Virus record (IMG/VR): IMGVR_UViG_3300020183_000010 | Strand: one strand, 5' to 3' | From: a virus | Length of the DNA stretch: 64,000 nt | In this document: one piece after another, positions 6,941 through 24,022 of the stretch | Layout of the letters: the number at the start of each line of letters is the position of its first letter | How positions within the stretch are numbered: the stretch's first letter is position 1 | Made by a program: the position numbers and the translations under genes | Notes under the pieces: model-generated | Database searches by the model: none | Told to the model about the DNA's origin: nothing | What the model saw: only the letters and a program-made list of their open reading frames with translations

Positions 6941-9900
6941 CTATTGTAAAGGATCTACTATTTGTATTGAAGGAGCTGAATCAACAAACATGAGTTTTAA
7001 ATTACCATTCTCGTCTCCTATTATAGTACAGGTGTAAGGTTTATAAACGTGAGTTGGATAAGGACTTAAATTAACGAAATCTACTCCTAAAACTGGATAT
7101 TGTGAAGTGTTGTACTGAAAATCTGGTCCTATGGTATTTCCTGAAAAGTCTACTGATAGATTATTGTTATTAAACCCGGTGTCTATTACGTTCCCTGAAG
7201 CGTGATCAGAAAATTTGTTATCGTAAGCCCCATCAGCTATTGTATTTCCACCAAAGAAAAAATCACCAAAGAAATTTCCACATTTATTGTGATTAAAATT
7301 AACTCCTATTTCATTAAACCAAGATAGATCTCCTATAGTATTAGAGGATGAGTTATCTCCTACAATATTTACGTTAAAGAAAAATCCTATGTTGTTAGAC
7401 GAAAAATATGAACTTAAAACGTTGTATTGAAAAAGGTCTCCAATCCTGTTATAATTAAATCCATCAGCTATTATATTATTATTAAAAGCCCATCCTATAG
7501 CATTGTTGTAGTATCCCCCTCCTGACGTATCCACTGTAGTATTATATGTAAAACTGTCACCTATATAATTTTCTACAAAATTACTTCTTATTATGTTACC
7601 ACCCTCCGCTAATGAAGGCGTCTCCGCATCTATACCAAAGTAGTTACCTATAACATTTCCTCTAAAGTCATCTAAAATAATATTAGATATTCCATCAGCT
7701 CCAGTATTACCGAAATAGTTGCCTATCTTATTATTATTAAAATTTAATCCTATTTGATTATTTATGAAATAATCTCCTATTACATTATTTAAAAAATTAG
7801 ATTCTTTCGCAGGTAATGTGTCTATATAATCGAAAATCGCATCAACACCGTTTCCGTTATCTAGTGTGTCTCCAAAAGTAAATGATCCTATTAATACATT
7901 TACTGTCATGGAAGAAGAACCAGGATCATCAACAAGAACCTCACAGGTATCTCCTAGCCCATTATCTAAGACGTCTCCTGGGTTGAATGAATTTATAGTG
8001 GAAATATCAAAGGTAGCATCGTTTCCTCCCCCCGATATGATTATACTATCACCGACACTGTAATAAGTACCAGGGGTATTAATTGATATTGACGTTATTA
8101 AACCAAATCCATCAGTAACAATATCAACAGTTAATCCAGATCCAGATCCGCCTACAGTAGCAACATTGGTAGTGTCTGAATAACCGCTTCCTCCGTTAGT
8201 TAAAGATATTCCAGATGGTATCCCTCTCAACGTATTATAATATATAGTATTTTCTACACCTATATTGTTACCCCCTTTACTTTTACCAAGATCGCAACCA
8301 AAGAAATCTCCTATTTTGTTATTTTTAAATGAACCTCCTATTATATTAGGAATAGACCCGTTCCCAAAGAAATTACCTATATCGTTGCTCTGAAAGTATG
8401 GACCTAATATATTTAATTTAAAATCATTTTTTATGTAATTGCTGGCGAATCCTACATCTATGATATTTTTATCCATTCCATTTCCTATAGAGTTGCTCCA
8501 GAAATTATTGATAATTGTGTTGGAATAAAATTCATCACCAATTACATTACCTAATAAAATTTTACCATCTGCCCCAAAGTTATCTCCTATTACATTACTA
8601 TCGAAATTATTACCTATTTTGTTATAGCCAAAATTTTGTCCATGATTTCCTGTTGTGTATATGGAATTCCATTCAGTATTTGCTGGACTAGTTGAGCTCC
8701 ACGATCCTTCAACAGCAGAATTATAAATTCCGCCGCTGTTATCTCTAGATATTTCTAATATCCCTGGTATTATTATATCGACCTCGTTTCCGTAGTTTGT
8801 TCTTGTGAAATAGATATCTGGTCCTATATCATTACCTGCTGAATCTATTTCAGTTCTTCTATACGAAAATGCTCCACCTCCAGTTCCCGCAGGGGTCCAT
8901 TGTAAAAAAGTTATTCTAAAGAACATTTCAGGACTCCCCTGGAATCTCATAATAAGAGGCATTTCTAATATTAAAGATTCCGATGATATGGAGTTATACA
9001 TCGTATCATAAGATCTATCCAATAAGGTAGATAAATCATTAAAAGAAAAATATTGGTAATTATATGGTTGGTTGGCATTAAATCCAGAGCCTATTTGATT
9101 ATTAAAGAAATTATTAGCAGTAATGTTACCAGAAAAATCTGTTCCTATATTATTATAATAAAAATTATCATAAGTGTAATTTTTTGAAAAATGACCTGAT
9201 ATATCGTTTCCGTAAAAATTGTAACTTATTATATTATATGAAAAACTGTACCCTATCGTGTTTTGGTAAAAATCTCCATTAATTAAGCATCCTACAAAGT
9301 TGTTAGCTATTTGATTCTCGTAAAAATCCCTTCTTATTATGGTTTTCTGTAGGGAATTATTTATAGTATTATTAAAAAAACTGAAGCTATTATCTATATT
9401 AGAATAATCGCCTATAAAATTACCTTTAAAATAATCTCCTATAGCATTTTGGTAAAAATTCATATAGATGGTATTGCTATTAAAAGAATTTTCTATTCTA
9501 TTATCAGAGAAAGAATTTCCGTTTTCCGATAGTAATGAATTACTATCAAATCCATTACCTATATTATTATTCTGTAAATTCGTGTTTATGATATTTCTAG
9601 TAAAATAATCCCCTATAAAGTTTTCGTCCATGTCATTAGACGATGCGTTTTCGTAGCAAAAATTCCCGAATGTATTGTTTGAATTATCTGTTCCGAATGT
9701 ATTATTATAGCAAAAATTCCCTAGTTTATTGTTTTGATATTCACCCTCTAAAAATACATTATTAGACAACATAAACGTAAATCCTTGGTTGGAGTAATCG
9801 TTTACATAATCTCCTACATAGTTGTTTACTGCATAGTTTGATAATAGAGCATCCCCGAATGTGGTATATTCTTGGTAGTCGTCAGTTTTAACGTTAGTCC

Positions 9901-21349: not shown

Positions 21350-24022
21350 TTAAATAAATATGTTATTAGTTGGGAAATTCCAAGTTATATAAGCATAAGT
21401 TCCATTTCCTCCTAAGCTCGTTAGATTTAAACCATAAATAGTAAATGATGAATTATCTTGTCTAACGTAATTACCAGCTCCAGCTCCTGTTATTGTTCTT
21501 GAGACGTATTTAGCTGTAGATTGTGCATGTGTTTGTAAATCGAGAGCTGGTACGCCCAAGGGATGTGTTACCGTTATTTGGTTAGAGCTGTCTCTGGTAA
21601 ATAGCCATCCACCAACTCCGGATGTTATAGTGTTACCTGAAGCGTCATTTGCTGCTGGGAATGGTGTAACCGAATCAACATTTCCTGAACCATCAAATTT
21701 AACTTTTAATACATATTTAGCTATTGGCCCAGCAGCTCCAGTAGGTCCAGTAGCTCCGGTAGCTCCAGTAGCTCCTCCTCCTGTTGGTCCTGTTGGTCCT
21801 GTTGATCCAGTTGGTCCAGTAGCACCTGTTGGTCCTGCTGGTCCTGAAGGCCCAGTATTTCCTGTAGCCCCTGTAGATCCTGGTAAATAAGTTGGAGTTA
21901 CCCATTGGTATAATCCAGGAGATGTACCATCATTAACATAACTATAAAGTACACCTGTATCGCTATTGTACCACATGGCTCCTTCTGTAATAGAAGGTGT
22001 TCCTGTTCCTGTTGGTGAAAAGTTCTGGAAGAAAAATTCTACAGCAGGACCTGTTGGACCAGTAGCTCCTGTAGAACCTGCACCAGTAGCTCCAGTAACA
22101 CCCGAAGTACCTTCCAATGTAAACATACTGAATCCTGTATCACTATTGGTAATATCTACGTTTCCTGATCCTCCAGATTGATAAGATACTTTTACCCAAA
22201 ATCTATCTCCAGATACTGCATTAACTATACCTGTTACTGTTATAAGATCGTAAGGAACAGTAGATCCTGTAGTATCTTCCAAAGAAGTAAATCCTCTGAA
22301 ATTTAAAACCTCTGAGGGTGATCCTGTTCCTTTCCATAATGATGTAGAAAGAAAACTGTTTCCTGAAGATGCAGTATGCTCCAGACCTACTTTATAGCTT
22401 ATAAAATATTGTCCATCATCCAATACCTCTATATAAGTACCAGTTACACCAGAACTAGAAAAGTCACCAGTAGCAAATACACCGGTATCTATTAAATTAT
22501 CAGTGTCGAATCTTACTGGGGATAATCCACCAGAGCTTAAAGTTTGTGTTGTGCTAAATTTACTTAAGTCAATATAACCAAGAGGAGATGGAGCACCAGC
22601 AGGACCAGTTTCCCCAGTAGAACCTGTAGGTCCAATTCCACCAGTAGGTCCGATATTACCAGTAGGTCCAGTAGCTCCTGTAGATCCAGTAGCTCCTGTT
22701 TCCCCAGTAGCTCCTGTTTCGCCTTTTATGTTATATTGTAATACCCATATTCCTCCTGATTTTTGATAGACGTCCCCGGTAATTCCGTCTAAATATAAAT
22801 CTCCTTCAGATCCTAATCCTACTAAAGGAGCTCCTGATCCTACGTGCCAATTTGCTCCTGTAGGTCCAGTAGAACCAGTAGAACCAGTAGAACCAGTCGG
22901 TCCGGTTGCACCAGTAGCACCATTAGTACCAGCAGATCCAGCCGCTCCAGTAGCACCAGTCGGTCCGGTGGCACCAGTTACACCTTGAGCTCCTGGTGTT
23001 CCTTTAGCTCCATTAGGACCGGTAGGTCCAGTAGTACCTGTTACCCCAGTAGGCCCTGGAACAGTTGAATCAGCTCCAGTAGCACCAGTAGGTCCAATAT
23101 CACCAGTAGGTCCAGTATTTCCTGTTGGCCCCGTTTCACCAGTGGAACCGGTTGGTCCTGTTTCACCAGTAGATCCAGTAGCACCTCCTGCAGGTCCTGC
23201 AGGTCCAGTAGCACCTGTAACCCCTTGAGATCCTATTATAGAAGTCCAAGCACCTGTACCGTTTAATCCTCCTGATAGTGCTCCGATAGATGAACTTACC
23301 GGAATAGTACCGTTTATTGTTATAACGTCTCCGTTTGCTGTAGCACCTAGTCCAGGTAATGCTTTTATTGTTACCGTATTTAGTGAATATTCAGCTAAAC
23401 AAGGGCCCGAAGGATTTAGAGATATATTGTCTACTATAGATTGTGCGGTTAAAGTATTATTGGTGTTCCAGGATGCTTGGCCTGCGGTTGTACCGTTATA
23501 TAATACTGCTATGGTTTGCCCGTTAATTCCAGTTGATCCTATATCGAATGAGAATGAAGCTTGTACTTCTCCAAAGCTAACAAATGCTTCATAATCACCT
23601 CCAATAAATCTTATCTGTCCTGGTATACCAGGTTTTAAAGACTCATCTGTATAGGTTCTATCTAATATTAATCTTAATCTTCCTCCTGTATTTGCGGATC
23701 CTACTAAAACATTACCACCTGCAAAAATATCATTAGAAGTTATTAATCCGCTTGCTGTTATTTCTCCGTTGCTACCTTTTAATTGGATAGAAGTGTTTCC
23801 CGATACAGGTAATCTTAATAGATCCGCTGTTATTGTACCGGTATTAATTTTGCCGCTAGGGAAGTTTAATGTTTTATCCTGTATAGAAACACCAAAAGCT
23901 CTATTTATAAGAAGTATAGCTTCTTGTAACTGAGCAAAATTAGCATTAGTAATAGAGTTATTAGCCCCTATCGTATTAGAAGCCAACAGCTGTTTTATTG
24001 TGATCTGATTAAGTTCCTTCAT
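21350..24022 (-). CDS. Collagen-like (Gly-X-Thr) fibre protein
   Basis: Long GPTGATG tracts interrupted by globular domains ([15 protein letters not shown]; [14 protein letters not shown]); GATATATA upstream. Confidence 0.85.

Follow-up and report, generated by a model that had tools for sequence, protein, structure and literature searches.

A phage-encoded TibC/Aah-type glycosyltransferase fusion co-occurs with proline-free collagen-like fibres and may glycosylate them

The bacterial BAHT enzymes TibC and Aah hyper-glycosylate the serines of a repetitive adhesin that is encoded alongside them, and BAHT genes usually adjoin the gene of their substrate (PMC4358343). TibC modifies Ser, not Thr, and works on synthetic peptides in vitro; roles have been assigned to its catalytic Asp, to the Thr, Lys and Trp that contact phosphate and sugar, and to the Fe-binding Cys of a 1Fe-0S iron finger, and Arg-286 contacts adenine N1 and is the basis of the specificity for adenosine diphosphate (ADP) sugars (PMC4358343). 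Here we analyzed a 64,000-nucleotide stretch of DNA (hereafter the window) from a large lake myovirus (IMG/VR record IMGVR_UViG_3300020183_000010), in which the gene of a TibC/Aah-type glycosyltransferase (GT) fusion, P0001, follows directly on the gene of a collagen-like fibre, P0005. We propose, with a probability of about 0.6, that the TibC-like domain O-glycosylates serines of this Gly-Thr-Ser (GTS) fibre and that the other domains extend and methylate the glycan. The two genes and the five domains of the enzyme are as follows; all open reading frames (ORFs) annotated here are on the minus strand.

17062..21333, minus strand: P0005, 1423-residue proline-free G-[T/S]-S collagen-like fibre (“class B”), proposed glycan acceptor (PF01391, E 4.7e-63)
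12326..16999, minus strand: P0001, 1557-residue five-domain GT fusion
15815..16999, minus strand: P0001 residues 1-395, GT4 domain of GT-B fold (PF00534, E 7.7e-9; PF13692; phrog_2170, E 2.9e-33, residues 14-385)
14798..15814, minus strand: P0001 residues 396-734, GT-A-fold domain (about 396-620) and beta-rich region leading into the TibC beta-barrel
13700..14797, minus strand: P0001 residues 735-1100, TibC/Aah-family (BAHT) domain (TIGR04414; PDB 4rap)
13130..13699, minus strand: P0001 residues 1101-1290, S-adenosylmethionine (SAM)-dependent methyltransferase, CmcI / rhamnosyl O-methyltransferase-like (PF13578, E 7e-16; PF04989, E 5.5e-6)
12326..13129, minus strand: P0001 residues 1291-1557 and stop codon, second GT-A-fold domain (structure prediction, alignment)

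Against TIGR04414 (cut-off 200), the TibC/Aah domain (matched at residues 734-1098) reached 322.6 bits with an E of 3e-96 and covered profile positions 10-373 of 374; it also matched the TibC structure 4rap with an E of 1.6e-62 over TibC residues 26-381; models of lipopolysaccharide (LPS) heptosyltransferases reached only 17-26 bits on this domain. The Asp of its LGD motif (D825, bases 14525-14527) aligns with the catalytic base D110 of TibC, T942, K946 and W1018 align with the donor contacts T226, K230 and W305, and Cys1054, 1057, 1071 and 1083 (bases 13751-13840) align with the iron ligands C339, C342, C358 and C370. D825, T942, K946, W1018 and the four Cys columns are invariant in 45/45 phage lineages (defined below). 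The initial annotation had described a TibC/Aah-like domain with an LGD motif and a four-Cys iron pattern, and both its base coordinates and its family assignment are borne out. The column of TibC Arg286 differs: it holds Ala999 in P0001 and V/A/T/L/I across the 45 phage lineages, and an Arg one position before Ala999 occurs in P0001 only, so that the residue tied to ADP-sugar specificity is missing and ADP-heptose need not be the donor. Judged from its sequence, the domain is a bona fide catalytic unit of the BAHT family with an uncertain donor. A search for the heptose pathway (TIGR02199) in 12 TibC-bearing records returned sub-cut-off, cytidylyltransferase-like matches in 4, which are not evidence for an ADP-heptose supply. 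In one of the TibC-bearing records (G008, the record behind locus L037), a 134-residue ORF resembling nucleotidyltransferase domain II of RfaE (G008:C1:92065-92460; 102 bits, cut-off 181.5) overlaps the end of a stand-alone 387-residue TibC gene on the same strand, and may represent a coupled step of sugar-nucleotide synthesis.

For the remaining domains of P0001, a GT4 domain, two GT-A-like domains and a SAM methyltransferase had been suggested, and all four were recovered, the GT4 and the methyltransferase by profiles and the GT-A domains by predicted folds. Neither GT-A domain matched anything in Pfam or NCBIfam, and they were for that reason assigned by structure prediction. Residues 396-734 were modelled by AlphaFold2 (AF2) from a 19-sequence alignment with a mean confidence (pLDDT) of 88.8, contain an invariant NYDY..D motif and were placed by Foldseek with probability 1.0 among PDB GT-A structures (COLGALT1, LH3 and glycogenin, E 1e-5). 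Residues 1291-1557 gave an AF2 pLDDT of 92.3, a TM score of 0.54 to SpsA and an invariant EDD (DxD-type) motif; the 728 relatives of this domain are for the most part stand-alone proteins of about 250 residues, and just 1/81 other TibC loci has a counterpart of it. The five domains of the initial annotation hold, and its term “polyprotein” for P0001 is better replaced by multidomain fusion.

The proposed acceptor P0005 has 555 residues in runs of at least six triplets and 316 Ser and 234 Thr (39% Ser+Thr overall). In its triplets X is T or S and Y is Ser in 161; the runs are without Pro, and globular domains lie between them. We refer to such proline-free G-[T/S]-S collagen-like sequences as class B and to the ordinary G-[P/A]-T type with Pro as class A. 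The next gene upstream encodes a second collagen-like protein:

21350..24022, minus strand: P0006, 890-residue collagen-like fibre (PF01391, E 8.9e-26; triplet composition; synteny)

P0006 has 186 residues in such runs; its triplets follow G-[A/P/S]-T and contain about 11% Pro, as is ordinary for phages (class A). Its N-terminal 266 residues are 79% identical in the relative G012 and 65% identical in the relative G014, both of which are without the GT cassette, and this comparison places P0006 in the backbone, outside the cassette. Of the two Ser/Thr-rich triplet fibres that had been reported beside the GT genes, both are present, but the association holds for P0005 and not for P0006.

The enzyme is widespread and co-occurs with class-B fibres. 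The TibC-domain search returned 1,620 proteins of 856-2725 residues, usually of about 1300 residues with the architecture GT4, GT-A, TibC, methyltransferase; in IMG/VR it gave 299 loci, of which 80 were kept and dereplicated at 90% identity to 45 TibC lineages. A collagen-like ORF was found within 10 kb of the TibC gene in 27/45 lineages; it is directly adjacent in 8/27 and strictly class B in 19/27, and most of the remaining ones likewise lack proline and have Ser at Y. In nearly all lineages, position Y of the class-B fibres is occupied most often by Ser, which these fibres offer at almost every Y. As a control, 58 terminase-centred loci (930 kb), which represent a single lineage, contained 1 weak collagen-like match, compared with matches in 39/80 TibC loci (Fisher p = 1e-10). 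When whole records were searched, collagen-like genes were present in 9/10 TibC-bearing records, in five of them mostly within about 17 kb of the TibC gene and in four at 20-57 kb or more, still of class B.

The association was also found in the reverse direction. Records of IMG/VR were collected independently of TibC by the DNA pattern (GGN-WSN-WSN)x7 for class B (16 searchable, at least 89 kb) and by (GGN-SCN-ACN)x7 for the G-[P/A]-T type of class A. TIGR04414 exceeded its cut-off in 11/16 records of the class-B sample, including 5/5 records that are at least 90% complete, and in 0/21 of the class-A sample, including 0/8 complete records and four of 123-453 kb (Fisher p = 5e-6; the two samples are not size-matched, and this p-value, like that of the control above, overstates independence because the lineages are related). 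Among the five negatives of the class-B sample, two are class-A-like and two are fragments (17% and 48% complete). The co-occurrence of TibC-like domains with repeat-fibre genes across phages had been set beforehand as a check on the prediction, and it is seen in both directions.

The pair is also present in the cultured Microcystis phage Mel-JY01, where a TibC-domain homologue, annotated as “methyltransferase FkbM”, goes with a class-B fibre; because this phage is cultured and carries the pair, the idea can be tested directly. When the ends of its record (PP395634.1; L398 and L001) are joined, one frame of 1788 codons with 597 residues of class-B G-T/S-S repeats is obtained, directly upstream of the genes for a “structural protein” and the TibC fusion. 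In the deposited annotation the end of the record is blank and minus-strand ORFs run over the repeat; the fibre gene appears to have been split by the linearisation of the record and missed. In another record (G013; locus L142), a TibC-like stretch at G013:C1:74049-74969 is 35% identical to residues 799-1103 of P0001 and has one in-frame TAG, and two large class-B collagen ORFs are situated about 70 kb from it.

Near relatives of the window allowed the comparison of loci with and without the enzyme. The genes between P0001 and the next backbone genes are:

11206..12357, minus strand: P0002, 383-residue DegT-family aminotransferase for 4-keto sugars linked to nucleoside diphosphate (NDP) (PF01041, E 4.3e-69)
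10718..11212, minus strand: P0003, 164-residue GNAT N-acetyltransferase (PF00583, E 1.2e-13)
6941..10699, minus strand: P0004, 1252-residue Asn/Gly-rich repeat protein (periodicity; no family)
6426..6926, minus strand: 166-residue ORF, last gene of the variable cassette, no function assigned (without counterpart in G012 and G014)

P0001 to P0006 lie where the initial annotation had placed them, all on the minus strand. The terminases of G012 and G014 are 93% and 81% identical to that of the window, and in both relatives the flanks are retained together with the N-terminal domain of P0006 (55-95% identity). In neither of them was P0005, the GT, DegT, GNAT, P0004 or the 166-residue ORF found: the P0006 orthologue of G014 is directly followed by the next backbone gene, and G012 has unrelated genes at this site. 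In G011 (terminase 95% identical) the P0006 orthologue is followed by a class-B ORF that runs off the end of the contig, and three loci with the same backbone (L002-L004) have a class-B fibre and a shorter GT. We conclude from this presence/absence pattern that 6426-21333 is an exchangeable cassette; as far as these sequences tell, the class-B fibre and the TibC-type enzyme are gained and lost together. The tie between the enzyme set and the neighbouring fibre, a claim of the initial annotation, thus also passes a comparison of near-isogenic relatives. The GT fusion of one of these loci (L004:6632-10540) is 62% identical to P0001, compared with 80-94% for the backbone genes, a difference suggesting that cassettes are exchanged or that the glycosylation enzyme diverges fast.

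The same variability can be read in another way. The enzymes might remodel the host envelope (LPS core, O-antigen or capsule), e.g., against superinfection, and the fibres would then be their neighbours through a common hypervariable region. This is the published reading for GTs in the tail-fibre hypervariable regions of aquatic myophages (PMC7029224), GT9, GT4, GT-A, DegT and GNAT are classic LPS/O-antigen families, and the cassette is hypervariable indeed, with a GT that is 62% identical amid flanks that are 90% identical. However, the domain is not a generic GT9, since it passes the TibC/Aah equivalog cut-off and keeps the beta-barrel and the iron finger, and co-location in a variable region does not predict a co-occurrence that is specific to class B and absent for ordinary collagen-like fibres. 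We therefore regard host-envelope remodelling as unlikely and return to glycosylation of P0005.

Three things are observed directly: what the domains are, that the catalytic and iron-finger residues are conserved, and that the genes co-occur. From them we infer a mechanism that would specify which protein is the acceptor, which sugars are donated, how the domains share the work, where in the virion the fibre lies and which roles the glycan has (shielding, adhesion, stability). The TibC/Aah domain would move a sugar onto Ser hydroxyls of P0005, encoded directly upstream; the fused GT4 and two GT-A domains would lengthen the glycan; and the CmcI-like methyltransferase would cap it by O-methylation. 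This lineage alone would have an N-acetylated 4-amino sugar to draw on, furnished by its overlapping DegT and GNAT genes. The outcome would be a densely glycosylated fibre, and the glycans may also stabilise the proline-free triple helix. A collagen triple helix is normally stabilised by proline or hydroxyproline or by charge pairs. (Gly-Pro-Thr)10 is a random coil until its Thr is galactosylated, and Thr glycosylation is seen as an alternative to hydroxyproline (PMC11923368); because (GPT)10 is a coil when unglycosylated, the stability of a P0005 helix without glycosylation is, by analogy, doubtful. This chemistry, together with the Ser preference of TibC and the Ser at Y of class B, is why the TibC-like domain is proposed as the initiator of O-glycosylation. 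The glycan assembly line on the fibres that had been suggested for this locus stands as far as the gene association goes; it is narrowed here to P0005, DegT and GNAT become an add-on, and the “own promoter” falls away (see below). More tentatively, and with considerable doubt on our part, the pair might form a dedicated “glyco-collagen” system, in which a ring-forming TibC-like enzyme would processively glycosylate every Ser of the proline-free (G-T/S-S)n and glycans, not proline or hydroxyproline, would permit a stable triple helix, the two genes being an obligate co-evolving pair that is swapped as a cassette to vary the surface.

Several points weigh against glycosylation of P0005, in addition to the related lineages behind the p-values. 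No collagen-like ORF lies within 10 kb of the TibC gene in 18/45 lineages; an 85%-complete TibC record (G010) has no collagen-like gene at all, and an 84%-complete class-B record (L195) has no TibC gene. The known BAHT acceptors are beta-helical autotransporter passengers, whereas the neighbour here is a proline-free collagen-like protein; instead of a passenger, collagen-like fibres and a 9-residue-repeat protein adjoin the enzyme. As the equivalent of Arg286 is not conserved, ADP-heptose may not be the donor. GT4, GT-A, GT9, DegT and GNAT are also typical of LPS/O-antigen pathways, and both the glycan and the modified protein are predicted here from genes alone. The matches to tail-fibre families of PHROGs stem from the collagen repeats alone, and the cassette is situated between DNA-repair and replication genes, outside the tail module. 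Because of this position, P0005 is only presumed to be located in the virion, on the general behaviour of collagen-like proteins of phages.

The amino-sugar enzymes had been likened to pairs such as PseC/PseH and WecE/WecD. P0002 scored 233.9 bits against PF01041 (gathering score 19.8; profile positions 7-359 of 360), and its nearest solved relatives are 4zwv, 4xau and CalS13 (E 5e-112, 378 bits), which we take to be sugar 4-aminotransferases from natural-product pathways; perosamine synthase reached 93 bits and PseC (2fn6) 84 bits. It falls below the equivalog cut-offs of PseC (203.9, cut-off 423.5), ArnB and WecE, and the safe reading of its sequence is an NDP-4-keto-sugar 4-aminotransferase of the AtmS13/CalS13 type rather than PseC. 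P0003 scored 55.2 bits against PseH (cut-off 93.1), and its nearest PDB entries are SpeG-type (E 6e-12); it is best described as a generic GNAT, for which N-acetylation of an amino sugar would follow from nothing but the 7-nt overlap with the DegT gene. The PseC/PseH identity was consequently rejected, with both proteins under the equivalog cut-offs and P0002 closer to the CalS13 group. No dehydratase, epimerase, nucleotidyltransferase or other sugar-nucleotide enzyme was found among 50 further ORFs of the window, in agreement with the earlier remark that the window lacks a 4,6-dehydratase. None of the 81 other TibC loci has a counterpart of DegT, GNAT or P0004, and these are therefore an addition peculiar to this lineage, outside the core system.

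P0004 shows a 9/18-residue NxIGxxF repeat and has 112 Ser; neither a family nor a structural match was found for it, and an Atlas search gave scores of 0.77. Its residues 53-547 are 36% identical to a 961-residue ORF with G-A/E-T collagen repeats at a different locus of a relative (G012:C1:89549-92431), and a module of P0004 therefore recurs in a collagen-bearing protein that is probably fibre-like. P0004 itself, which is specific to this cassette, is probably a fibre of solenoid type, and the beta-helix that had been suggested for it is a putative fold. The coils of AIDA-I and TibA are about 19 residues long. An acceptor other than P0005 could be sought here: BAHT enzymes recognise strand-loop-strand motifs of beta-helices, the 18-residue period of P0004 resembles these coils in length, the protein offers 112 Ser, and its gene belongs to the same cassette, 18 nt after that of GNAT. 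That P0004 would be modified and the collagen-like fibres left unmodified is nevertheless quite improbable in our view: the fold is only putative, and P0004, having no homologue in the 81 other TibC loci, fails to account for the pattern seen across the family. It could serve as a further glycan acceptor beside P0005 rather than as an alternative to it.

The genes of P0001 and P0002 overlap by 32 nt and those of P0002 and P0003 by 7 nt. The overlapping GT, DegT and GNAT unit that had been noticed is real, but it is not limited to three genes, because the P0004 gene starts so closely behind GNAT. A motif upstream of the GT gene had been taken as the unit's own promoter:

17028..17053, minus strand: AAAC-N17-TATAA motif in the 62-nt spacer upstream of the GT gene, candidate phage promoter element (pattern match)

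The motif is present and occurs 5 times in the window, each time on the coding strand and three times in an intergenic spacer, but the count is without statistical support (2.46 expected; 6/100 shuffles reach 5), and the claim of a promoter of its own is not sustained. A scan for sigma-70 promoters and terminators over 6000-24600 gave results at or below shuffle expectation.

The window has a GC content of 32% and is thus AT-rich. Myovirus markers were identified by PHROGs (tail sheath, 46557-49958; large terminase, 50029-51834; DNA ligase; DnaB-like helicase). The terminase is about 37% identical to those of uncultured huge phages in GenBank and 73-97% identical to those of 58 IMG/VR contigs; no phage in GenBank matched the locus by megablast. 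The cassette is bordered by DNA-repair/replication genes, encoding an exonuclease, a ligase, UvdE and a UVR-motif protein. That the adjacency has no functional meaning, or that the GTs modify phage DNA or a small molecule, would be a further explanation. Phage GTs often modify DNA (PMC12619734), and the window encodes enzymes of nucleotide metabolism, e.g., a dCMP deaminase; however, no known DNA glycosyltransferase family was matched, and the forward and reverse association statistics and the co-variation of the cassette argue against chance adjacency. We give very little credence to either form of this explanation.

Two adjacent, full-length portal-like genes (29086-30753 and 30760-32379; phrog_213, E 2e-59 and 1.5e-58) are kept in G012 and G014. 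A backbone ORF of 263 residues (4169-4960) is 63-80% identical in relatives with and without the cassette and has a weak full-length match to PF01973 (MptE-like/DUF115, E 0.062); in its Atlas neighbour cluster, 16% of the members have PF01973, and a Maf-like fold is a lead only. A Pfam scan of 40 pooled ORFs of the window returned a SET-domain protein, two sigma-70-like factors, a dCMP deaminase, a TnsA-like endonuclease, a RecA-like protein and a guanylate kinase. A SET domain is unusual for a phage.

Where aquatic phages encode GTs in their fibre regions, modification of host LPS is the routine interpretation. If our proposal is true, the phages' own fibres are the target of a family that counts at least 299 loci in IMG/VR and about 1,600 protein clusters, and the substrates of TibC/Aah widen from beta-helical adhesins to collagen-like repeats. 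It would also explain proline-free collagen-like chains of up to thousands of residues and imply a new surface layer, with relevance for how hosts are recognised, how stable the particles are and how “auxiliary” sugar genes in viral metagenomes are annotated.

Compared with TibC/TibA and Aah/AIDA-I (4RAP, 4RB4), the locus agrees in that the alignment spans the TibC protomer in full, with beta-barrel, catalytic lobes and iron finger, and in that the enzyme gene adjoins the gene of a long, repetitive, Ser-rich fibrous protein. It differs in that P0001 is phage-encoded and that the phage versions are usually fused to GT and methyltransferase domains (up to five domains here); TibC/Aah is a ring dodecamer that transfers heptose from ADP-heptose to Ser, whereas P0001 is known from its sequence and lacks Arg286. 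In the BclA of the Bacillus anthracis exosporium, a collagen-like glycoprotein carries an N-acylated, 2-O-methylated 4-amino-4,6-dideoxyglucose (PMC6222408). The O-linked oligosaccharides on triplets rich in hydroxy amino acids, and the chemistries of an aminotransferase, an acyltransferase, a methyltransferase and GTs, match those of the cassette. The likeness noted here is one of chemistry; BclA belongs to a bacterial spore, is glycosylated on Thr of Pro-containing GPT triplets and involves no BAHT. The fibrils of Mimivirus (PMC9614988) are similar insofar as virus-encoded amino-sugar synthesis and GTs decorate the virus' own surface fibrils, although in a giant virus of eukaryotes and with other enzymes and acceptors; here a tailed phage would use a BAHT-type initiating enzyme. 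In mycobacteriophages, as summarised from Freeman et al. 2023 in PMC12619734, phage GTs O-glycosylate the phages' own structural proteins, which is shown there and proposed here; the acceptors given in that summary are the C-termini of capsid and tail-tube subunits and the enzymes are not BAHT, whereas here genes of large aquatic myoviruses point to a collagen-like fibre. In our literature searches, no publication was found that connects BAHT enzymes with phages or with collagen-like fibres. To our knowledge, mycobacteriophages are the only phages that have been shown to glycosylate their own particles. With phage virion glycosylation already known from that group, the comparison points to the pairing of a BAHT enzyme with a collagen-like fibre as the new part.

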